From IMG/VR virus record IMGVR_UViG_3300015242_000011, positions 1 through 39,017 of that record: DNA of 39,017 nt; one strand, given 5' to 3'. Within the stretch, counting starts at the first letter, position 1; every line of letters begins with the position of its first letter. The position numbers and the translations under genes were made by a program. The stretch comes from a virus. Positions 1-39,017 of this stretch are shown piece by piece. Under the pieces are notes generated by a model. The model was not told the origin of the DNA. It ran no database searches and saw only the letters and a program-made list of their open reading frames with translations.

Positions 1-77
1 CGCCGGAGCCGTCGCCATCGCCGTAGCCGGAGCCGTAGCGGTCTCGAGAACCTGCGCCGTGCAGAGCGCTCACGTTC
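1..77. repeat. Terminal overlap (exact copy of 38941-39017) marking circular closure
   Basis: Base-by-base identity over exactly 77 nt. ORFs and the hexamer array continue sensibly across the junction. Confidence 0.97.
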
Positions 78-378
78 AGGACTTTCGCGACTTCTTCGTG
101 GAAGCGCGCGGCGCTCCGAGGATCTCGTTCCAGATCGCCTGGTCGCACTCGACGTCGGCGACCACCGCGAGCACGTGGATGCGCACGCGTCCGCAGAACT
201 TGAGCTCCGTCTTTTCGTCCTTGCCCTCGAGCGCTAGCGCACCGATGCCGCGGTTCGCGTCCCATCGGCGGACGTTGTGGCAGTCCGCCAGGACTGCGTA
301 GTCGCCCTCGCGGGTCAGGCGCCCGGCGAACACCCATCCTCGCTCGGCAATCACCACGTAAATCGTCGCGTCGCTCAT
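76..378 (-). CDS. Hypothetical protein (100 aa)
   Basis: ATG at 376-378 with AAGGGG upstream. Its TGA stop lies 2 nt before the GTG of the Gly-X repeat ORF across the junction. No domain recognised. Confidence 0.6.
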   Translation of the reverse strand: MSDATIYVVIAERGWVFAGRLTREGDYAVLADCHNVRRWDANRGIGALALEGKDEKTELKFCGRVRIHVLAVVADVECDQAIWNEILGAPRASTKKSRKS

Positions 379-420: not shown

Positions 421-445
421 TCGGGGCGCCCGGAATCGAACCGGG
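421..445 (-). other. tRNA-like 3' fragment (T-arm plus acceptor 3' strand), not a complete tRNA
   Basis: The minus strand reads CCCGG-TTCGATT-CCGGG-CGCCCCG-A. This is a canonical GGTTCGATTCC T-loop with a 5-bp stem, a 7-nt acceptor strand and a discriminator A. No 5' acceptor (CGGGGCG), D arm or anticodon arm is present upstream. Confidence 0.45.
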
Positions 446-664
446 ACAACGCTGCACGGCCACGTGCTACGCCTCGTAGATCACCGGGCGGATCGTCCGG
501 TGACTGTTTCTTCCGCTGTCTGAGGACAGCTGATCTGGTTCGTTCGTCCTTGGTGCACCTCCTGGTTGGTTGCGATCGAGAAGGTGCGGCGCCAGTGACT
601 GCGGGGGAGCGAGTCCACGGCCTGGTGAAGTCCGTGGCTCATCATCAGCGGCGCCGCGAAACGT

Positions 665-5415: not shown

Positions 5416-5435
<20 letters not shown>
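5028..5435 (+). CDS. HNH-like phage nuclease candidate (DUF968/NinG-like pattern, 135 aa)
   Basis: Basic N-terminus. The Cys...Cys, ADHLG and CAPLCSQHH arrangement resembles lambdoid HNH-type proteins. Assigned from memory only. Confidence 0.5.
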
Positions 5436-6371
<936 letters not shown>

Positions 6372-6375
<4 letters not shown>

Positions 6376-10518: not shown

Positions 10519-11820
10519 CTACGGCGCTCCACACTCGTGCGGCGCGTCGACCGCAGCATCGGGCGCACTGTCCGGCGCGACCGGCGCCAGCGGATTCTCG
10601 AACCACACGAGCCCAAGCTGGTTGATCTGCTCCGTGTCGACGACGTCCAGGTCGCCATCACCATCGACGTCGTACAACAGCATGTTGTCGTACTTCGTCC
10701 CGGTCCCGCCGCCGACGTTGCCCCAGGTGTACGTGCCGTCGCCGTTGTTCCGGAGCCAGTAGACGCCGACGACCGTATCGGAGCAGCACGTGTTGCTCTC
10801 CCACGTCGACACCGCGATGTCTGGCAGCCCGTCCTGGTCGATGTCGCCGACGTCCGCACCCTGGTAGTGGCGGCCCGTGTTCGTATCGACGTAGAGCGTC
10901 GCGCTGGTCGTGCCGTGCGTCGCGATCGTCGAGGACTGCCCCGCGTGGGAACGACCCTCGAGCATCTCGCCGGCCGCGAGTACCCGCCCGAACATCTCGT
11001 CACCGGTGTACGGCGAACCGAAGATGGTGTGGTTCGTCCATCCCGCGGGCGCGGTCATGACGTGCTCGATCCACCGCGAGCCCGTCAGGTCGGTGCGCGG
11101 CACGGTGTCGCCGGGCAGCTTGTAGCCGGCGCGATCCGTGACGACCAGGTCGAGGTCACCGTCGCCGTCGTAGTCGTATGGGATGACCGACATCGTCCAG
11201 CCCGCGTATGTGAGCTGTTCGAAGGTCCACGCGGTGCCGACACGGGTGCCGGGGTTGTGCAGGAGCGCGATCACCGCGGGCGTGGCTGCGCTGCCACCGT
11301 ACGAACCGGCGAAGATGTCGAGCGTGCCGTTGCCCGTCGAATCGCCGCACGCCGCCTGGATCCACGTCGCATGGCCCTGGGATGCGGTGATCGAGACGGG
11401 CGTGCTCGTACCGCCGTAGACCACGTACATCCGCGCGCGAGCGACGATGACCAGGTCGTCGAGGCCGTCCTTGTCGAGGTCGCACAGCTTGGCGTCTTCG
11501 GGTCCGCTCTGACTGATCGGGAACGTCGTGGTGACGCCCGTCGCGAGCACGGTCAGCGATGTCGCGTTGCCCTGCTCCCACGGGACGGCAGCGACGCCGT
11601 GTTGGATGTCGACGCCATCGGCACCGACGTGCTGCCCGGAGCTCGCGCCGGCAACGATCGTGTGCATGGTCCACGGCGTGGCCATGTCGATCTGCTGATG
11701 CACGGTGACCGTGGATGGCCGGCTGCATGATGCGATCAGCAGTGCGATCGCGGTGGCGAGCGTGAGCGGGTCGCGCGCGAGAACGCAGCAGGACTCGGCA
11801 TCGGAGAGGCGCTTCTGCAT
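10519..11820 (-). CDS. FG-GAP/VCBS-repeat lipoprotein (433 aa)
   Basis: ATG 11818-11820, 2 nt after the upstream TGA. Lipobox LLIAS|C. Repeated Ca-binding loops DLDKDGLDD, DYDGDGDLD, DIDQDGLPD and DVDGDGDLD. Confidence 0.75.
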   Translation of the reverse strand: MQKRLSDAESCCVLARDPLTLATAIALLIASCSRPSTVTVHQQIDMATPWTMHTIVAGASSGQHVGADGVDIQHGVAAVPWEQGNATSLTVLATGVTTTFPISQSGPEDAKLCDLDKDGLDDLVIVARARMYVVYGGTSTPVSITASQGHATWIQAACGDSTGNGTLDIFAGSYGGSAATPAVIALLHNPGTRVGTAWTFEQLTYAGWTMSVIPYDYDGDGDLDLVVTDRAGYKLPGDTVPRTDLTGSRWIEHVMTAPAGWTNHTIFGSPYTGDEMFGRVLAAGEMLEGRSHAGQSSTIATHGTTSATLYVDTNTGRHYQGADVGDIDQDGLPDIAVSTWESNTCCSDTVVGVYWLRNNGDGTYTWGNVGGGTGTKYDNMLLYDVDGDGDLDVVDTEQINQLGLVWFENPLAPVAPDSAPDAAVDAPHECGAP

Positions 11821-11822
11821 GA

Positions 11823-12668
11823 TCAGCTCCACGACATGGTGAGAGGGGTGAGCGTCTGGAACAGCGCCTTGAACTGGGCGCTCGTCAGCTCGGCGTTCGC
11901 GCCGGTCAGCAGACCGCCCCAGAGGTAGCCGATGGCCGCCGACGTGCCGCCGGACGAACCGACGCCGACCGCGAGCCCGGCATACGTGCCGACCGTGCCG
12001 ACGATCTTGTCCTGGTCCGTGAACACGAACGCGCCCGGCGTGGTCACGTTGACCTGGAGCGCGACGATGTGGACGGTGTTCGTGCAGATGTTGCTCGCGC
12101 CATTGACGGTGGTCCCGCCCGCGCCCTGCGTCGTGCACTGCGCCACGCCAGTCGTGACCGCAACGCCGAAGACGGCGCCGGTGGTCGAGTCGAAGCGATG
12201 GATCCGGCGACTCGCCGCGGGGATCGCGCCCGGCGTGAGGATGTACAGGAGCAGCAGGCCCGAGGTCGTAGCGATGTCGGGGACCGTCGTGGTGTTCTGC
12301 GCGTTGTGGTTCGCTGCCGCGTCGGGCAACGTCATTGCCTTGTTGGCCCAGCCGGCAACGGCCTGCTGGTACAGCCACGACGCGCCGGCGACGGTCAGCG
12401 TGTTGCCCGCCGCCAGCTGGTCGGAGACGTTGCCGCTCGCCGGCGCGCCGAAGTTCCAGCTCGACAGCGCGCTCTTACCGGAGAGGCCAGCGACGTTGAA
12501 CGTCGTCGTCCACTCGCCGGCGGTCGCTGGCATGTACCAGCCCGACGTCGCATCGCGGGTGACGCCCGCCATCGGGCTGGCCGCCCCACCGCCGAGCTCG
12601 TCGACGCCGATACCGATCGCCTTCCCGAAGGTGCGACCGATTCGCTTGCCGATCCGGTGGCCGATCAC
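11823..12668 (-). CDS. Virion/tail-associated protein candidate (281 aa)
   Basis: GTG 12666-12668, 2 nt after the upstream TAG. Beta-rich and Gly/Thr/Ala-rich. The 5' extension in the track is an Arg-rich shadow. Confidence 0.55.
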   Translation of the reverse strand: MIGHRIGKRIGRTFGKAIGIGVDELGGGAASPMAGVTRDATSGWYMPATAGEWTTTFNVAGLSGKSALSSWNFGAPASGNVSDQLAAGNTLTVAGASWLYQQAVAGWANKAMTLPDAAANHNAQNTTTVPDIATTSGLLLLYILTPGAIPAASRRIHRFDSTTGAVFGVAVTTGVAQCTTQGAGGTTVNGASNICTNTVHIVALQVNVTTPGAFVFTDQDKIVGTVGTYAGLAVGVGSSGGTSAAIGYLWGGLLTGANAELTSAQFKALFQTLTPLTMSWS

Positions 12669-13193: not shown

Positions 13194-15410
13194 TCAGCTG
13201 CGACCCGCGGCCTGCTGCTGCACTGGCGTCGGCTGCTCCACGGACTTGCGGAGCGAGCCGAAGCTCGGGTTCGGGGTGACGGTCGGCTGGCTCGTGCCGC
13301 CGTTCGTGTTCGGCTCGGCGGCGAAGTTGCCCTGGAGCACGCGGAGGATCCGCGGCTCGAGCGCGGGGTCGACCGCGATGCCGGTGAACATCGAGAGCGC
13401 GAGGCGGTTGCGGTACGGCAGCGCCTGCTTCAGGTCGGGGAGCTGCTCCAGGACCATCTGCTTGAGCTGCGCGGCGCGCTCCGGGTAGACCGCGTGGTAG
13501 GCGGCGACGTCCTCGGGCGTGATGGTCCCGTGCGCGAGCCGGTGCTCGACGCCCTCGGGGTGCTCGGCCGCGGCGACCTTGCGGGCGAACGAGCGCATGT
13601 CGAGCTCGCTGGGCTTCCAGCGGTCGGGGCCGCCGATCGGGATCCCGCCGATGTCCGGGCGGCGCGGCAGCTGGCTGGCCAGCCACTCGATCCGCGCGAC
13701 GGCCGTGGTCTCCATCTTGTCGGCGAGCACCGGCGAGACCATGCCGATCGGCGCGAGCTGCTTGGCGATCGCCTGGCGCGCCTCGGGCCGGATCCGCGGG
13801 GTCCCGGTCTCGTCGTAGGCGGTTTGCGCGCGGAGCTCGGCGGAGCGGGCGTGGTAGAGCCCGGCGAGGTCCGTCGGCTGCGGGGCCTTGGGGTCACGCG
13901 GGCCGAACGCGGCGTTCGCGAGGACCCGGGTCGCCAGCACGGGGACCAGCGGGGACTTCGCGGCGGTCCCCAGGAAGGCCTTGGCGTTCTCGGCGGTGCG
14001 CGCCGCGGTCGCCGCGACGTCCTTGCCGAGCTTGCCGAACACCAGGTCCCCCACGAGCTTCGAGGCCTTCGCGCCGATCACCGGCGCGAAGTGTCCGAGC
14101 GGGGACGCCAGCGCCGTGGCCGCGCCGAACACGTGGCCCTCGAGCATCTGCTGCGGGAGGGACTTGGGCGCCAGCGGCATTTGGAGTGCCGCCTTGGCGT
14201 CCTTGATCGCCTGCAGGCGCGGCGAGGTCAGCTCCGCCTTCGGGACCAGCGATTCGGTGATCGACTCCTGGAGCGCGCGGTTCCGCTCGAGCAGCTCGGG
14301 CAACTTGCCGAGCGCCTCCTCGCTCTGGCCGGAGACCTGTCCGCCCTTGAGCGCCTCGAGGAAGCCCTGCGCGTCGTCGCGCGCCACGGTGACCGCGCCC
14401 TTGCCGACCTTCACGCCGGCGTAGCTGCCGTAGCGCTTGGCCGTCTTGCCCGAGAGCTCGAGCTCCTTGACGAAGGGGCCAGACTCCGCGAGGTCCTGCT
14501 CCAGCCCGGCGGCGAGCTTGCTGTTCGTCTCGGATAGCTTCGCGGTGATGGCGGTGCGGTCCTCGAGCGCGGCCGCAAGCGCGTCCTCCTGCTGGCGGAG
14601 CGGCTTGAGCAGCGAGCGGGGGTTCTCGGCGAGCCCGCGAGGGTCATCGAGCGCGGCGCGCAGCGTCTTGTTGCTCTTGGTGAGCGCCGCCGAGCCCTCG
14701 CCCTCGTCGATCACGAGCCACGGATTGGCCTCGCGGACCGCCTGGCGGTAGGCCGTGGCATCCCCGACCGCCTTCGCGCGGGCGGCGCCCTGCTGCGTGG
14801 CGAGCTCGCCGACCTCGGTCTCGTGCGCGGCATCGAGTCCCTTGATGTCGAGCCCGGCCAGGTCCGGCGCGGCGCGCGCGGCATCGCCGGCGACCGCGCT
14901 GCTGTCGAGCGCCTTGCCGGCGCGCCCGAGGCCGCGCTCGACGCTGCCGACCCCGCCGGTGGTCTCGCCGCCCAGCAGGAACTTCGAGGACAGGCCCGAT
15001 GCCGCGCGCTCGGCGGTCAGCGCGTCCTCGCCGATCGCGGCCGCCTTGCCGAGACGTGCAGCGCCGGCGAGCTGACCCGCGAATGGGATGATGGCGCCGC
15101 CGACCGTGCCGATCGTGCTGCTCGTGGGGTTCACGGCGCGCAGCGTGTCCGCCGCCTCATCGATCCCGAGCGCGCTGAGCCCCGCATCCGAGGCGCCGAA
15201 CGTGGCCGTTCCAAGCGCGCTGATGCCGGCGGTCGCGAGCTTGCCAGCCGCGCCGCCGTACTCCTTTTCGCGGATGTTGGACCTCACCGCCGAGAGCTGC
15301 TGATCCGGCGTCTCGACAGTGAAGCGGCGACCGAGATACGTCGGAACATCCGCCTGCGGGACGTCGACACGCTCGCCCTCGGGGCTCGTCAATGTGACCG
15401 TGTCGCCCAT
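13194..15410 (-). CDS. Large internal virion/ejection-type protein (738 aa)
   Basis: Ala/Gly/Leu-rich and helical. Position matches the internal core proteins of podoviruses. TAATG overlap with the upstream gene. Confidence 0.6.
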   Translation of the reverse strand: MGDTVTLTSPEGERVDVPQADVPTYLGRRFTVETPDQQLSAVRSNIREKEYGGAAGKLATAGISALGTATFGASDAGLSALGIDEAADTLRAVNPTSSTIGTVGGAIIPFAGQLAGAARLGKAAAIGEDALTAERAASGLSSKFLLGGETTGGVGSVERGLGRAGKALDSSAVAGDAARAAPDLAGLDIKGLDAAHETEVGELATQQGAARAKAVGDATAYRQAVREANPWLVIDEGEGSAALTKSNKTLRAALDDPRGLAENPRSLLKPLRQQEDALAAALEDRTAITAKLSETNSKLAAGLEQDLAESGPFVKELELSGKTAKRYGSYAGVKVGKGAVTVARDDAQGFLEALKGGQVSGQSEEALGKLPELLERNRALQESITESLVPKAELTSPRLQAIKDAKAALQMPLAPKSLPQQMLEGHVFGAATALASPLGHFAPVIGAKASKLVGDLVFGKLGKDVAATAARTAENAKAFLGTAAKSPLVPVLATRVLANAAFGPRDPKAPQPTDLAGLYHARSAELRAQTAYDETGTPRIRPEARQAIAKQLAPIGMVSPVLADKMETTAVARIEWLASQLPRRPDIGGIPIGGPDRWKPSELDMRSFARKVAAAEHPEGVEHRLAHGTITPEDVAAYHAVYPERAAQLKQMVLEQLPDLKQALPYRNRLALSMFTGIAVDPALEPRILRVLQGNFAAEPNTNGGTSQPTVTPNPSFGSLRKSVEQPTPVQQQAAGRS

Positions 15411-17494
15411 TACTGGTCCCCTGGCGGGCCGATCTGCGGGCCCTTCGGTCGATAGCCGTGGCTCGAAAGGATCTTTGCTGCCTCGCTGCGGACCGCCGGC
15501 GTTTCCGAGTTCATGAGGGCCTTGTTGAGCTGGTCGAATGCATGAGCGCGGCCGGCTGGCTCTGTGTTGCCGAGCTGGCGCGCGAGGTCGTTCAGGAGCA
15601 GCTGCTGGTCATCGGTCAGCCCGCCGCGGCTCGCGGTCTGAGCCAGCTGCGAGACGTCCAGGCCAGCGCCGACTCCGCCGGTCGGCGATGAGAGCAGCGT
15701 GTTGAGTTCGCGCTCATCGAGCGTCTCGACGTGTCCCGGTGGCCGCGACGTGTCCGTGATGACGGGCGCGCCGCGATAGCGAGCCTTCTGCCGCAGCGCG
15801 ATGGTGACGTCGTCCTTCGCCGAGTCGATCATGTCGTCGATGCGGCGAAGCCCGGTGCGCTTGTTCAGCAGCCGGTCCTTGTAGTTCTCGAAGTTCGGAC
15901 CGAACAGCTCCTCAACGGCCTGCATCTCTCGGCTCGACGGGTTCGCGCCCATCGATTTGATGAAGTTCATCTTCGCCTTTTCGAACTTCGTCGTAATGCT
16001 CGCCCACGTTTGGCGATCGATCGACGATGGGTCATTCGCGAGCATGCGGCGCGCCTCGCCGAGCACGTTGACGAAGTCCTGCGTCTGCGTGATGTTGTCG
16101 TTGATCTTCGCGGTCTCCTCCGCTGGGAGGCGAATCACCGCACCCTTGTCGTCGGTGAGTGGATGACCGTCGGGGCCCTGCACGGTGGTTGAGGCCTCGG
16201 ACGACTGCGCCTCGCGACCCTTGCCGACCGCTTCCATGAGCTTCACGTGATCCGCGAGGGTCATCGGCTTGGGCGGAAGAGGGATGTCGATGCCCTGCGA
16301 CTTGTAGAGCGCCTGGAGTTCGCGCGGCTGGAGGACGTCCTTGCCGCCGCCGGCCTGCTTGAGCGCGAGCTCGCGCTTCTTCAGATCGAGCTCGCCTTGC
16401 TTCACGCCGAGCTCGCCGACCTTGATGTTGTACTCGCCCTGCTTGATCTGATTGTCTAGGTCGGCCTTCTGATAGGCGTCCTGGACTTGCTGGATCCGTC
16501 CAGCGACGCCGTTCATGACTTGGGCGATGCCGAGCGAGCGCGTGGTGCGCGGGTCGAACTGCTGCTGCTGGGTCTGGAGGCTGGCGAGCGCGCGCTTGTA
16601 GCCCGCGAGCCGCATGACCTCGGCCTGGTGATAGAGGTCGGCATCAGCGGCGGACTGGTCATTGATGAGGCCCTGCTTGCGCGTCAGCTCGGTGCCGCGG
16701 TTGCGGAGGTCGGCCTGCTGGGCATCGACATCGGCGCTGACCTGCTTGTCGATCCAGTCCATCGCCTGGTTGTGGCCGTTGCCGCCGGTGGTGCCGGCGA
16801 CGAGTCCGCCCGAGAGCGCGGCCAGCCACGTGCCCGCGCGGCCGATCGTGTCGAGGTTGTTGAACCAGCGGCCTCGGTCGAGCCTTGTATTCGCGATCGC
16901 ATCGCTGTCGGCGTTGAGCTTCTCGCGCGCGGCCTGCGACCGCGCCATGGCCTGCTGGTAGTTGAAGTAGCTCGCGGTCTGCTGCTTCGCGTCTTCGAGG
17001 TCGATCTTCGCCTGTTGCTGCGCGACGAAGTCCTGACGCCGGTTGTCGAGGTCGTACTGCGCGGCGGCCGCCTTGTACGGGTCGCGCATGTAGTCGGCCG
17101 CGAGCTCGCGCGATGTCTCGTATTCCTCGGGGAGCGCTGGCTGCGCCTGGTCGAGCGCGACATCGTGCGGCGTTCCGGGCGCGATCCCTCCGGCGATCGC
17201 GTCGGGCGCCGGCGCCGGTGGCGGCGGTTGTGCGACGGGCTCCGCGCCGTAGGGCAGCGGCGGCGCGGCATCGACCGGAGGCGGCGGGATCGAGAGCGGC
17301 TGATCTTCCGGGCCCGGCGGCCCGGCGAACGGCAGCGGCGGCGCGGCATCGACCGGCGGTGGCGCCGGCGGCGCGCCGGCGAGCTCGTCCGTAACGGGCG
17401 GCGGGACCGGGCCCATGCCGGGCGGCCCATCGGGCCACGCCTGCTGCCACCAGGGCATGGCCCCAGCGCCGGCGATGTCGTCGGTCAGCGCCAT
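15410..17494 (-). CDS. Large internal virion/ejection-type protein (694 aa) with Pro-rich N-terminus
   Basis: Duplicated PPVDAAPPLP motif, then a long coiled-coil-like Gln/Ala/Asp region. Confidence 0.6.
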   Translation of the reverse strand: MALTDDIAGAGAMPWWQQAWPDGPPGMGPVPPPVTDELAGAPPAPPPVDAAPPLPFAGPPGPEDQPLSIPPPPVDAAPPLPYGAEPVAQPPPPAPAPDAIAGGIAPGTPHDVALDQAQPALPEEYETSRELAADYMRDPYKAAAAQYDLDNRRQDFVAQQQAKIDLEDAKQQTASYFNYQQAMARSQAAREKLNADSDAIANTRLDRGRWFNNLDTIGRAGTWLAALSGGLVAGTTGGNGHNQAMDWIDKQVSADVDAQQADLRNRGTELTRKQGLINDQSAADADLYHQAEVMRLAGYKRALASLQTQQQQFDPRTTRSLGIAQVMNGVAGRIQQVQDAYQKADLDNQIKQGEYNIKVGELGVKQGELDLKKRELALKQAGGGKDVLQPRELQALYKSQGIDIPLPPKPMTLADHVKLMEAVGKGREAQSSEASTTVQGPDGHPLTDDKGAVIRLPAEETAKINDNITQTQDFVNVLGEARRMLANDPSSIDRQTWASITTKFEKAKMNFIKSMGANPSSREMQAVEELFGPNFENYKDRLLNKRTGLRRIDDMIDSAKDDVTIALRQKARYRGAPVITDTSRPPGHVETLDERELNTLLSSPTGGVGAGLDVSQLAQTASRGGLTDDQQLLLNDLARQLGNTEPAGRAHAFDQLNKALMNSETPAVRSEAAKILSSHGYRPKGPQIGPPGDQ

Positions 17495-36790: not shown

Positions 36791-37300
36791 TCAGAAGATC
36801 AACGCCGCTCCCAGGTCGGCGATGGCTCGTCGCATCCCGCCGGCGCCGGGGAACGGGTCGGCGATGGCGTCCTCTGGCTTGGCGTTGAGCAGCTGCAACA
36901 CCCACTGGCAGAACTCGGGCGACTTGGCTCCGGTCAGGCCTTTCTGCAGCGTGATGCGGCCAGAGAAGAAGTCCTTCGGCGTCGTCTGCTTGCCGCCCTT
37001 CTGTGGCGGCGGATGAGCGATATGCGGTGGATTCGCGCGGCTCGCGAACAGCACGGGTTCCCATGCGTAGGCCGGGCGGACGTCGAGCGGCGCGAACGGC
37101 AACAGCTGGCGGAGGCTCGGCGCGCTCGCCGAGAGCGCCCAGCCGTCGGGGTATTCGTCGACCAACCACTGAATCAGCAGCCGGTGCGTCTCAATGTCGT
37201 CCCAACATCGACCGTCGAACGGACGGAGCCGGTCGCCGTGCTGGTGGCCGTAGTAGCAGCAGCGACCGAAGTAGGGCGGATCGGCGTAGCAGAACTGCAT
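36791..37300 (-). CDS. Small DNA methyltransferase (169 aa; DPPY then FxGxG order)
   Basis: MQFCYADPPYFG places motif IV at residues 7-10, and ADPFPGAGG (motif I) lies near the C-terminus. TGATG overlap with the integrase stop. Confidence 0.7.
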   Translation of the reverse strand: MQFCYADPPYFGRCCYYGHQHGDRLRPFDGRCWDDIETHRLLIQWLVDEYPDGWALSASAPSLRQLLPFAPLDVRPAYAWEPVLFASRANPPHIAHPPPQKGGKQTTPKDFFSGRITLQKGLTGAKSPEFCQWVLQLLNAKPEDAIADPFPGAGGMRRAIADLGAALIF

Positions 37301-38406
37301 CACTCCTCCTCCGTCGGCGGCTTCGGCAGCTGCATCGCCGGGACCGCGGCGATCGCGTCGTCGAGGTTCTCCTGGGAGAGCCGCCCGTACACCTTCTCGA
37401 CCATGCGGGTGCTCGAGTGGCCCATCAGCGTCGCGACCACGAGCAGCTGCACGCCGTTCTGCACCAGCCAGCTCGCGAACGTGCGGCGCAGGTCGTTGGG
37501 GCTGACCCGCTTCACGCCGGCGTTGTCGCAGGCGGTGTGCAGCGCCCTCCGCACGTTGCCCCAGGGCGACACGACGCGGCCCGAGGCCTTGGGGCCAGCC
37601 GCCTCGAGCAGCGCGGCGAGCGTCGGCGCGATCGGCACCCACCGCGAGCGGGTCTCGCGCTTCTCACCGCGGAGCTTGAGCTTGCGCTTGGCGAGGTCGA
37701 CGTCCTTCCAGTCGAGGCTCTCGACCTCGCTCGCGCTGCCGCCGGCGAGCGCCGCGATGCTTACCCACAGCACCCGGTTCGCGGTCGGGACGTGCTCTCG
37801 CGTGCGCCTTCGTTGCTTGCGCCGCGCGCGCCGAGCTCGAGCGCCATCGTCTTCGAGGCCTGGGCGTCCGAGGTGCTGCACGACCTTCGAGAACTCCTCC
37901 GGCGTCAACCAGACCTCGCGCGGCTTGTACCGGGGCGAGTGGTTCGGCATCGGCGGCATCACCGGCAGCACGCCGCGGGCGTGCGACTCGCGGAGCGCCC
38001 GGCGGATCACGATGAGCTCCTTCTGGACCGTGTGCGGGCTCGCCTTGCCGTGCCCTTTCTCGTCCGACAGCCGGCGCGCGACGTAGCTCGATAGCATGTC
38101 GCGGGTGATGTCTTGGACGAACGGGTCGCCGAGCGTTGTGAGGATGCGGCGGCCCTTCTGTTCGTAGAAGGATCTGGTCGCGGCCGCGCGGTCGTGCATC
38201 ACGGTGATCACGTAGTCGATCGCCTCGCTCAACCGTTGCCGCCGCCCGCGAGCTTGAGGGGTCGCAGCCAGCTCGGCTTGGCGGAGCCGCTCCTTGGCGA
38301 CCGCCTTGTCCTTGGTTCGGAGGGTTCGCTGGACTCGCTTGCCTTCGGGGGTGGTGTAGTCGCCGTAGTAACTTCCGCCGGCGTGGCGTCGGTAGAGACG
38401 TCCCAT
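37300..38406 (-). CDS. int: Tyrosine recombinase / phage integrase (368 aa)
   Basis: From ATG 38404-38406. Arm-binding-type N-terminus YYGDYTTPEGKRVQRTLRTKDKAVAKERL. C-terminal catalytic region ...DLRRTFASWL...LMGHSSTRMVEKVYGRL (R, H-x-x-R, Y). The upstream ATATAT extension is a repeat shadow. Confidence 0.9.
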   Translation of the reverse strand: MGRLYRRHAGGSYYGDYTTPEGKRVQRTLRTKDKAVAKERLRQAELAATPQARGRRQRLSEAIDYVITVMHDRAAATRSFYEQKGRRILTTLGDPFVQDITRDMLSSYVARRLSDEKGHGKASPHTVQKELIVIRRALRESHARGVLPVMPPMPNHSPRYKPREVWLTPEEFSKVVQHLGRPGLEDDGARARRARRKQRRRTREHVPTANRVLWVSIAALAGGSASEVESLDWKDVDLAKRKLKLRGEKRETRSRWVPIAPTLAALLEAAGPKASGRVVSPWGNVRRALHTACDNAGVKRVSPNDLRRTFASWLVQNGVQLLVVATLMGHSSTRMVEKVYGRLSQENLDDAIAAVPAMQLPKPPTEEE

Positions 38407-38570
38407 GGGCGCTCCGTGTTCTTCGCAAGGTAGTCGGCGAGGTCGCGCTCGGCGACGCGCACGCAGCGGCCGATGTGGACGCGCGGCAAGGATTGGAGGA
38501 GGCGGTACGCGTGCGCTCTGGAGATGCCCAGGCGCTCGGCGAGATCGCGAGGTGTGAGGTAGCGGGTCAC
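38229..38570 (-). CDS. Excisionase-family HTH protein, Xis-like (113 aa)
   Basis: From GTG 38568-38570 (GTGA overlap with the repeat-ORF stop). Contains YLTPRDLAERLGISRAHAYRLLQSLPRVHIGRCVRVAERDLADYL. The C-terminal 59 codons overlap int out of frame. Confidence 0.6.
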   Translation of the reverse strand: MTRYLTPRDLAERLGISRAHAYRLLQSLPRVHIGRCVRVAERDLADYLAKNTERPWDVSTDATPAEVTTATTPPPKASESSEPSEPRTRRSPRSGSAKPSWLRPLKLAGGGNG

Positions 38571-39013
38571 GCACCACCACCGATTGCGCCGCACCCTCGG
38601 GAACACCCGAGCGCGATCTCGATCGCATCGGAGAGCGCGAGGCCGGGTGTTCCCTCGCGCGCGGCGCTCGTCGCGAGCGCGCACCGCGCGCCTCCGATCT
38701 CTTGCTCCGGGTAGCCGTCGCCGGAGCCGGAGCCGTAGCCGTAGCCGGAGCCGTAGCCGTAGCCGTAGCCGTAGCCGTCGCCGGAGCCGTAGCCGGAGCC
38801 GTAGCCGTAGCCGTAGCCGTCGCCGGAGCCGTCGCCGGAGCCGTCGCCGTAGCCGTAGCCGTAGCCGTAGCCGTAGCCGTCGCCGGAGCCGTAGCCGTCG
38901 CCGGAGCCGTCGCCGTAGCCGTAGCCGTAGCCGTAGCCGTCGCCGGAGCCGTCGCCATCGCCGTAGCCGGAGCCGTAGCGGTCTCGAGAACCTGCGCCGT
39001 GCAGAGCGCTCAC
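38567..39013 (-). CDS. Gly-X dipeptide-repeat protein (148 aa): 12-aa N-terminus, about 89 aa of (G-Y/D/S)n, 47-aa unique tail
   Basis: Its GTG lies 2 nt after the stop of orf 76-378 across the junction. Its stop forms a GTGA overlap with the Xis-like start. Of the three minus frames, only this one has C at every third position in the array. Confidence 0.5.
   Translation of the reverse strand: MSALHGAGSRDRYGSGYGDGDGSGDGYGYGYGYGDGSGDGYGSGDGYGYGYGYGYGDGSGDGSGDGYGYGYGSGYGSGDGYGYGYGYGSGYGYGSGSGDGYPEQEIGGARCALATSAAREGTPGLALSDAIEIALGCSRGCGAIGGGA
38711..38977. repeat. 267-bp uninterrupted hexanucleotide array (GTAGCC / GTCGCC / GGAGCC / ATCGCC units)
   Basis: 44.5 consecutive NNNGCC hexamers read directly. 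The array runs into the 77-nt terminal overlap. Confidence 0.95.
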
Positions 39014-39017
39014 GTTC

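Follow-up and report, generated by a model that had tools for sequence, protein, structure and literature searches.

Borg extrachromosomal elements carry amino-acid tandem repeats (aaTRs), which are perfect nucleotide repeats within open reading frames (ORFs), and Borg Sm ribonucleoproteins bear disordered extensions made of such aaTRs (Schoelmerich et al. 2023, PMC9879509). These are the nearest described phenomenon to the element considered here, a hexanucleotide array in a circular viral genome (IMG/VR record IMGVR_UViG_3300015242_000011, positions 1 to 39,017; this whole stretch of 39,017 nucleotides (nt) is called the window) that encodes a strict alternation of glycine with tyrosine, aspartate or serine, denoted Gly-X. 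As with Borg aaTRs, the repeat resides on a mobile element, has a unit length divisible by three, evolves fast and is predicted to make an intrinsically disordered region (PMC9879509). Whereas Borg aaTRs arise independently in many genes, the Gly-X array is one 6-nt unit that recurs as a dedicated gene across thousands of bacteriophages. The disordered region and an Sm-like protein are, moreover, encoded by separate adjacent or overlapping genes rather than joined in a single polypeptide. The Gly-X arrays also differ in having bacterial hosts and in lacking A-rich repeats.

Our analysis indicates that the array forms the core of a protein-coding gene that is hypervariable in its number of units and that is paired with a gene of the DUF6948 family. 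Confidence in this coding, hypervariable, paired gene is high, and to the reading as a whole (i.e., Gly-X gene, two-gene cassette and variable-number tandem repeat, or VNTR), which we consider the best explanation, we assign a probability of roughly 75%. How the pair might function is proposed by analogy and with low confidence.

Layout of the Gly-X gene and its partner

38567-39013, minus strand: Gly-X repeat protein gene, 148 amino acids (aa), GTG start, stop codon included
38978-39013, minus strand: N-terminal leader VSALHGAGSRDR, with the GTG start 2 nt past the TGA of the partner gene
38711-38977, minus strand: in-frame hexanucleotide VNTR with coding-strand units GGCTAC (Gly-Tyr), GGCGAC or GGCGAT (Gly-Asp) and GGCTCC (Gly-Ser)
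38570-38710, minus strand: non-repetitive C-terminal tail PEQEIGGARCALATSAAREGTPGLALSDAIEIALGCSRGCGAIGGGA, with the conserved pattern PEQE[I/L]GG..ARE...D...AL
76-378, minus strand: partner gene, a divergent DUF6948 of 100 aa, immediately upstream of the Gly-X gene across the circular junction
38941-39017, identical to 1-77: terminal redundancy of 77 nt that marks circular closure, inside the array and leader

With this terminal overlap, the circle measures 38,940 bp and has a G+C content of 68%. A preliminary description of this DNA had proposed that the array consists of 44.5 uninterrupted hexamers of four kinds, and the count holds: GTAGCC occurs 22 times, GGAGCC 11 times, GTCGCC 10 times and ATCGCC once, plus a half unit (Tandem Repeats Finder reports period 6, 44.8 copies and a score of 377). 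The proposed 148-aa product likewise resolves into a 12-aa leader, an 89-aa (G-Y/D/S)n core (residues 13-101) and a 47-aa tail, running from VSALHGAGSRDR through (G[Y/D/S])n to the PEQEIGG...GGGA tail. Both of the junctions noted at its ends are present: After closure of the circle, the GTG start lies 2 nt downstream of the TGA of orf 76-378, and the TGA stop overlaps the GTG of a Xis-like ORF with an HTH_17 domain as GTGA. The same description located orf 76-378 correctly with respect to this GTG but missed its role as the DUF6948 partner, and it considered the gene against the background of phage integration modules; the gene does lie beside xis-int here, but it belongs to a cassette of DUF6948 and Gly-X genes and not to that module.

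Translation in the Gly-X frame

When scored against the genome's own codon table in all six frames, the array has a codon log-odds of +0.60 bits per codon in the Gly-X frame, which is the sole positive frame, the other five ranging from -0.20 to -1.50 bits per codon; the Gly-X frame also scores best in the tail region (+0.08 bits per codon). On the sequences compared, the comparative evidence for translation is stronger than these scores. In at least eight homologues the Gly-X frame runs without a break through a conserved leader and tail, and minimal homologues have a start just 5' of the array and a stop just 3' of it, both in this frame. A different frame relative to the flanks had been named as grounds for doubt, and the relatives show the Gly-X frame wherever the flanking ORF was examined. 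Translation as originally suggested is therefore borne out by the sole positive codon score and by the recurrence in homologues of the tail and of the GTG/V-S-A leader; homologue L002, for example, begins with V-S-A-I, and its GTG start shares nucleotides with the stop codon of the DUF6948 gene. The segment 38567-39013 on the minus strand is a genuine protein-coding gene.

One argument that had been advanced for this frame needs amendment. Not every codon in the array ends in C: 88 of 89 do, the exception being the GAT from the single ATCGCC unit (GGC GAT). The near-uniformity of third positions stands as an observation, but it reflects mainly the concerted evolution of units and not free codon choice.

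A protein search with the Gly-X query yielded 2,537 matches. That some of these share more than composition is clear from the tail, which directly follows the Gly-X array in P0016 (YPEQEIGGARCAVATAFARE...), P0005, P0028, P0001 and P0003. When the tail by itself served as query in an exhaustive phmmer search, the matches were P0242, P0244, P0028 and P0246, in each of which a Gly-X array directly precedes the tail. The homology check proposed for the 47-aa tail thus gave a consistent answer, in that its relatives all have a Gly-X array immediately before [Y/F/I]PEQE[I/L]GG. The protein of the window has every element by which we delimit this subfamily (a leader, (Gly-X)n, [Y/F/I]PEQE[I/L]GG and an ARE...D...AL tail of ~35-45 aa), and P102, E103, Q104, E105 and E120 are invariant in the tail alignment. 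Many Gly-X proteins consist of a 3-15-aa leader, the array and 0-13 further residues, and others carry unrelated C-terminal domains (DUF6745, DUF7666, and the domains of two groups that we call families A and B). Because many homologues are only leader and array, and because the C-terminal domains vary, the array is the constant and presumably functional element. Pfam matches of the repeat to TrAA12, sulphur-globule and keratin families were sub-threshold and composition-driven, and were rejected.

Among the homologues with unusual architecture, P0020 (L006, 5001-5678) combines an N-terminal TIGR02996 ‘repeat-companion’ domain with a Gly-X array and an unrelated C-terminal domain; all 37 Gly codons of its array are GGG, and no DUF6948 gene was seen to precede it. 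The C-terminus of P0020 appeared DUF6948-like by eye, and the protein was considered as a Gly-X/DUF6948 fusion; neither BLASTP nor hhalign supported this (probability 0.1), and the idea was dropped. Contig L124 (1720-2929; IMGVR_UViG_3300048502_000134) holds a tandemly duplicated array-gene cluster, in which four consecutive Gly-X array genes of 28-35 units each have identical leaders (…MGLKAFLKF) and tails (PNLTSAGATVVEE); here, too, no DUF6948 was detected upstream.

The DUF6948 partner and the distribution of the cassette

The product of orf 76-378 scores 14.9 bits against Pfam DUF6948 (PF22253; E = 0.029), which is under the gathering threshold of 27 bits; its closest relative, the L002 partner (43% identity), scores 19.8 bits on the same profile. 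Against a hidden Markov model built from 52 other DUF6948-family proteins (nearly all of them Pfam-annotated, and with the orf 76-378 product and P0143 excluded), it reaches 34.9 bits (E = 6e-13) over residues 5-90. Fold matches of its model in BFVD are exclusively to uncharacterised DUF6948 proteins (E values of 1e-5 to 1e-3). By these profile and fold matches orf 76-378 is a divergent member of DUF6948; it shares the predicted fold and the Gly-X synteny of the family, although its score on the Pfam model stays below threshold. Peptide patterns from the product had no match in viral or genome contigs.

DUF6948 lies directly upstream of the Gly-X gene in L002, L003 and L004 of the tail family, and it is also found upstream in family A (~240 aa, with a different C-terminal domain) and in family B. 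All 59 of the family-A loci with upstream sequence have it, 56 of them with a 4-nt stop/start overlap. Among long arrays recognised by a codon-neutral pattern (GGNTAY x4), 55 of 70 are preceded by DUF6948. Complete phage genomes, found by a search with DUF6948, have it before a Gly-X ORF in 9 of 9 lineages: these comprise Rheinheimera phage Barba, Rhodobacter phage RcapNL, Iodobacter phage PhiPLPE, Ralstonia phage NK-7, Chlorobiaceae phage CV-1-33, Pectobacterium phage Koroua, Vibrio phage IKEMa6-1 and the uncultured viral genomes MW202613 and MW202898. The window conforms to this two-gene arrangement, with both genes on the same strand and separated by the 2-nt TGA-GTG gap. Judged from these gene neighbourhoods, the partnership of DUF6948 and Gly-X is strong but not obligatory.

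Elsewhere the cassette occupies early, replication or other regions, mostly away from the integrase. Its hosts and sources are Pseudomonadota phages, one Chlorobiaceae phage, human-faecal phage contigs and the 68% G+C contig of the window, and the DUF6948 profile search produced at least about 8,000 matches. Our literature search found no paper that mentions DUF6948 or describes the cassette, and queries on DUF6745, DUF7666, glycine-tyrosine prophage, lamprin/phage and hexanucleotide-repeat phage returned nothing relevant. The cassette is both undescribed and widespread.

GenBank labels for Gly-X genes are inconsistent (e.g., ‘hypothetical’, ‘lamprin’ and ‘fibroin heavy chain-like’). The Gly-X gene of CV-1-33 (L221, 1174-1419; MT192033.1 gene25) is annotated in the wrong frame, as MAMAMALAMA..., and its Gly-X frame is open from a start 13 nt before the DUF6948 stop. 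That of PhiPLPE (L219, 1160-1408) is unannotated in GenBank, and its frame is open directly after DUF6948. Gly-X genes are thus easily missed, mis-framed or misnamed in annotation.

Length variation and concerted evolution

That the array is a length-variable locus, as had been suspected, is confirmed by differences in unit number among near-identical relatives, among Barba isolates and between two assemblies of the phage in the window. In family A, 59 complete genes that match one query at 88-100% identity in their C-terminal domains have arrays of 10 to 116 aa (5-58 units). Four alleles occur among seven cultured Barba isolates; they reflect two independent +GGCTAC insertions at different sites and one AAC>TAC change, and the upstream flank shows 0 mismatches in 834 nt in the one allele pair compared. 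A second, independent assembly of the same phage as the window (L091) agrees with the window at all but 2 of 3,378 nt of flank, and its array differs from that of the window by 18-, 12- and 18-nt indels and 2 substitutions; the L091 contig ends inside the array. Unit number is therefore polymorphic among near-identical genomes, as it is in a VNTR, whereas frame-shifting, on/off phase variation is not observed: every variant seen stays in frame. With a unit of 6 nt, any gain or loss of units leaves the reading frame intact, and the array is not an on/off switch. Slippage or unequal recombination adds and removes units at a pace well above that of mutation in the flanks.

The remark that the assembly broke at this locus is accurate, in that the contig is cut inside the array, and 21 of 80 related contigs likewise end at one. 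The window is cut at its array because such arrays repeatedly break short-read assemblies. Collapse of the array had been raised as a concern and is countered by its sequence: The longest exact internal repeat is 48 nt, and all 55-mers and 77-mers are unique. Since every 77-mer is unique, an assembly path through the array at k=77 is unambiguous, and unique sequence flanks the array on both sides within one contig.

Codon usage within an array is nearly invariant. The window array has GGC for 44 of 44 Gly and TCC for 11 of 11 Ser; given that TCC accounts for 15% of the Ser codons of this phage, we calculate 0.15^11, or ~9e-10, for the latter. Family-A arrays show GGC in 1828 of 1850 Gly codons, TAC in 597 of 597, GAC in 445 of 445 and TCC in 710 of 718, as against 44% GGC, 47% TAC, 61% GAC and 21% TCC in the C-terminal domains of the same genes. 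A codon-neutral search revealed that other lineages are fixed for GGG, GGA or GGT, or for TAT/GAT/TCT, each being uniform inside its own array, and that GG at unit positions 1-2 are the only bases universal across lineages. The occurrence of the same hexamers in low-GC L007 and in the 68% G+C window had raised the possibility of a universal RNA or DNA motif, GGCNNC, which the GGG/GGA/GGT and NAT lineages exclude.

Codons that are uniform within lineages and different between them point to slippage with concerted evolution under protein-level selection. Turnover of units is much faster than point mutation and keeps synonymous positions uniform within an array. The residues reached from the Tyr codon by transversion (Asp and Ser, and Asn in some lineages) are abundant, and those reached by transition (His and Cys, along with the codon TAT) are seen seldom or not at all. 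New X residues lie one step from the Tyr codon and are filtered by selection to Tyr plus Asp and Ser or Asn; from this codon spectrum, amino-acid-level selection on the X residues is evident. In these arrays nature provides a clear case of an in-frame microsatellite that evolves in concert while selection acts on the amino acids it encodes.

Predicted structure and a possible mode of action

The disordered core foreseen in the preliminary description agrees with the AF2 prediction, in which the predicted local distance difference test score (pLDDT) is ~30 over the repeat and the tail has two weak helices. By direct count the Gly-X protein has ~17 acidic and 5 basic residues and is strongly acidic; its repeat is rich in tyrosine and contains neither Lys nor Arg. 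Compared with shuffled controls, the RNA of the array has the less stable fold (z = +4.55). The AF2 model of orf 76-378 (pLDDT of 69.6) has five or six strands, and its best 50 fold matches in the PDB are all Sm/LSm or Sm-like proteins; the DUF6948 product is thus predicted to be an Sm/LSm-like small beta-barrel. Synthetic GYGYGYG and related (X-Tyr)n peptides are described in PMC8163036 and PMC11093263 as forming fibrils by self-assembly.

The mode of action that we favour, though with low confidence, makes the repeat itself the functional part, in which Tyr would act as sticker and Gly/Ser as spacer, with Asp maintaining solubility. The Gly-X chain would self-associate, acting together with rings of its DUF6948 partner; specificity would come from the C-terminal domains, which vary between homologues and are represented here by the PEQEIGG tail; and the number of units would tune the valency of the repeat. 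A more far-reaching and rather unlikely proposal is that the Sm-like ring and the hypervariable Gly-X chain co-assemble, perhaps together with RNA, and form a condensate- or scaffold-like body at an early stage of infection or induction, with slippage retuning the valency of the repeat. Such retuning could answer, for example, pressure from host factors that recognise the repeat. If this proposal is true, the cassette is a bacterial-virus counterpart of eukaryotic granule proteins that combine LSm and low-complexity domains. Function is directly testable, the cassette being present in the cultured phages RcapNL, Koroua, NK-7 and Barba.

Alternative explanations

The array can also be read in an Ala-Thr/Pro frame, as an N-terminal extension of the integrase. 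An ORF of this kind exists on the minus strand (37300-38958, 552 aa), which from an ATG at 38958 stays open across array, tail and xis region and into the integrase; it was the choice of a naive greedy gene caller, the Tyr/Asp change is synonymous in it (GCT vs. GCG, by direct reading), and Ala/Thr/Pro linkers are common in proteins. Its codon score is nonetheless negative in both the array (-0.20) and the tail region (-0.37), the DNA between array and integrase encodes the HTH_17 protein in another frame, the integrase profile match begins at residue 6 of a 368-aa ORF, and its flanks are conserved in no homologue, whereas the Gly-X leader and tail are conserved. With spurious long ORFs to be expected at 68% G+C, we find such an extension hardly credible, and the 552-aa ORF is very probably a high-GC artefact that can mislead gene callers. 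We give just as little credence to the idea that the diversity at unit positions 4-5 stems from a diversity-generating retroelement (template AAC, converted to NNC). Nearly all variant X codons in the window and in family-A arrays are indeed NNC, with variation limited to two nucleotides per unit; but the window has no second template copy of the array, no reverse transcriptase domain was found among the ORFs scanned (not every ORF was), whole-unit indels dominate array variation, NNT codons occur in other lineages, and the NNC codons seen are a narrow subset. That the array arose by collapse or chimerism during assembly, or that it is a structural repeat without coding function (attP arm sites or origin iterons, for instance), might be suspected from the cut inside it, from the related contigs and L091 that end at such arrays, and from the integrase and tRNA-like fragment nearby. 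This, too, is very unlikely: The unique 55- and 77-mers, the unique flanks within one contig, the equivalent arrays in finished genomes of cultured phages, the constant location within an ORF in a fixed frame and the position of the cassette far from any integrase in other phages all speak against it.

An unlikely but more substantial alternative is that the array acts mainly as RNA, with translation secondary, providing a single-stranded (GGNNNN)n platform for Sm-like DUF6948 rings and leading to autoregulation or ribonucleoprotein assembly. Hfq/Sm rings bind short repeated single-stranded motifs, and the best 50 PDB matches of the DUF6948 model are all Sm/LSm or Sm-like proteins; the gene order of the cassette is fixed and its genes abut or overlap; synonymous positions are extremely uniform inside each array; and an array RNA that is less structured than its shuffled controls would be an accessible single strand. 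What speaks against this alternative is that the synonymous codon sets differ by lineage (GGC/GGG/GGA/GGT; NAC/NAT), that wherever the flanking ORF was examined its start and stop suit the Gly-X frame and the array is read in it, that the X residues are filtered at the amino-acid level, and that several unrelated C-terminal domains occur as in-frame fusions to arrays.

The translated, length-variable Gly-X gene paired with DUF6948 has points against it as well. No DUF6948 is detectable upstream of 15 of the 70 long arrays, nor upstream of the tail-family gene in L001 or in L005, the latter located at a contig end. The PDB matches to Sm proteins are weak (Foldseek E values of 1e-2 to 4e-2, template-modelling scores of 0.4-0.6) and come from a medium-confidence model in which the canonical N-terminal Sm helix is absent. 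Part of the difference between the arrays of the window and L091 could be short-read assembly error. No function model in PADLOC, NCBIfam, PHROGs or Pfam matched beyond low-complexity noise, and self-association into a condensate is proposed by analogy. Anti-phage defence and anti-defence families gave no functional match in PADLOC, NCBIfam or PHROGs, and Rfam gave no match.

Neighbouring genes and other repeats in the window

38229-38570, minus strand: Xis-like HTH_17 ORF, 113 aa (Pfam HTH_17, 2.5e-10; phrog_66 excisionase, 3.6e-6)
37300-38406, minus strand: tyrosine integrase, 368 aa (Phage_integrase, 7.9e-16; phrog_1, 4.1e-49, aligned from residue 6)

Here the cassette heads a co-directional string of abutting or overlapping genes, namely DUF6948, Gly-X, Xis-like and integrase. 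The Xis-like ORF has no stop until 38229, and its low-complexity C-terminal half overlaps the start of the integrase by 178 nt in another frame. The gene content of the window is of phage type (terminase, CHAP lysin, tyrosine integrase, HNH and DUF5131), and a Megablast search of 25 kb against GenBank phages found no close relatives.

The stretch at 421-455 (minus strand; hairpin at 481-503) looks like a tRNA 3' end; its T-arm reads CCCGG-TTCGATT-CCGGG and its acceptor strand CGCCCCG-A. This tRNA-Pro-like fragment adjoins the DUF6948/Gly-X/xis/int string, upstream of it and in the same orientation, and may be the attP core. Neither ARAGORN nor Rfam called it, and an exact-match genome search gave 0 matches.

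The Gly-X gene is not the only dipeptide-repeat gene of this genome: At 5843-5898 another hexamer array, (CTGTTG)x9.3, encodes (Val-Ala)n (NPVAVAVAVAVAVAPDLAVA) in frame within a 319-aa plus-strand ORF (5416-6375). A 694-aa protein (15410-17494, minus strand), probably a tail component, has an N-terminal region rich in Pro and Ala (PPPVDAAPPLP repeated) that is encoded by imperfect 39- and 24-nt repeats at 17255-17372. A 619-aa ORF (10519-12378, minus strand) adjoining the lysis and tail region has C-terminal FG-GAP/VCBS-like repeats.

Comparison with known systems

Low-complexity tails are known from Sm-fold proteins, as in the arginine- and glycine-containing (RG) tails of eukaryotic LSm4, SmB and SmD and the Gly-rich tail of Acinetobacter Hfq. 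The phage cassette resembles these Sm/LSm/Hfq proteins in that a small, bent beta-barrel, here a predicted one, is paired with Gly-rich low-complexity sequence. It differs from them in that the similarity is at the level of fold only (E values of ~1e-2) and in that the Gly-X part is a separate polypeptide of strict dipeptides.

The chain itself recalls silk fibroin, with its crystalline (Gly-X)n repeats, the low-complexity [G/S]Y[G/S] domain of FUS type and the synthetic, amyloid-forming GYGYGYG: In all of these Gly alternates with Tyr, Ser or a small residue, and tyrosine is the likely interaction residue. The likeness to silk and FUS is, however, one of composition without homology, and the phage arrays are strongly acidic (~25% Asp), short (5-60 units), hypervariable and apparently intracellular, no signal peptide being evident.

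Like bacterial contingency loci and VNTRs, the arrays gain and lose units at rates far above that of point mutation. Unlike contingency loci, they never lose the frame, the unit being a multiple of 3, and what varies is how long the product is and how it is composed, not whether it is expressed. In-frame repeats that give rise to disordered proteins are known; the two-gene phage cassette in which one is set here is undescribed.

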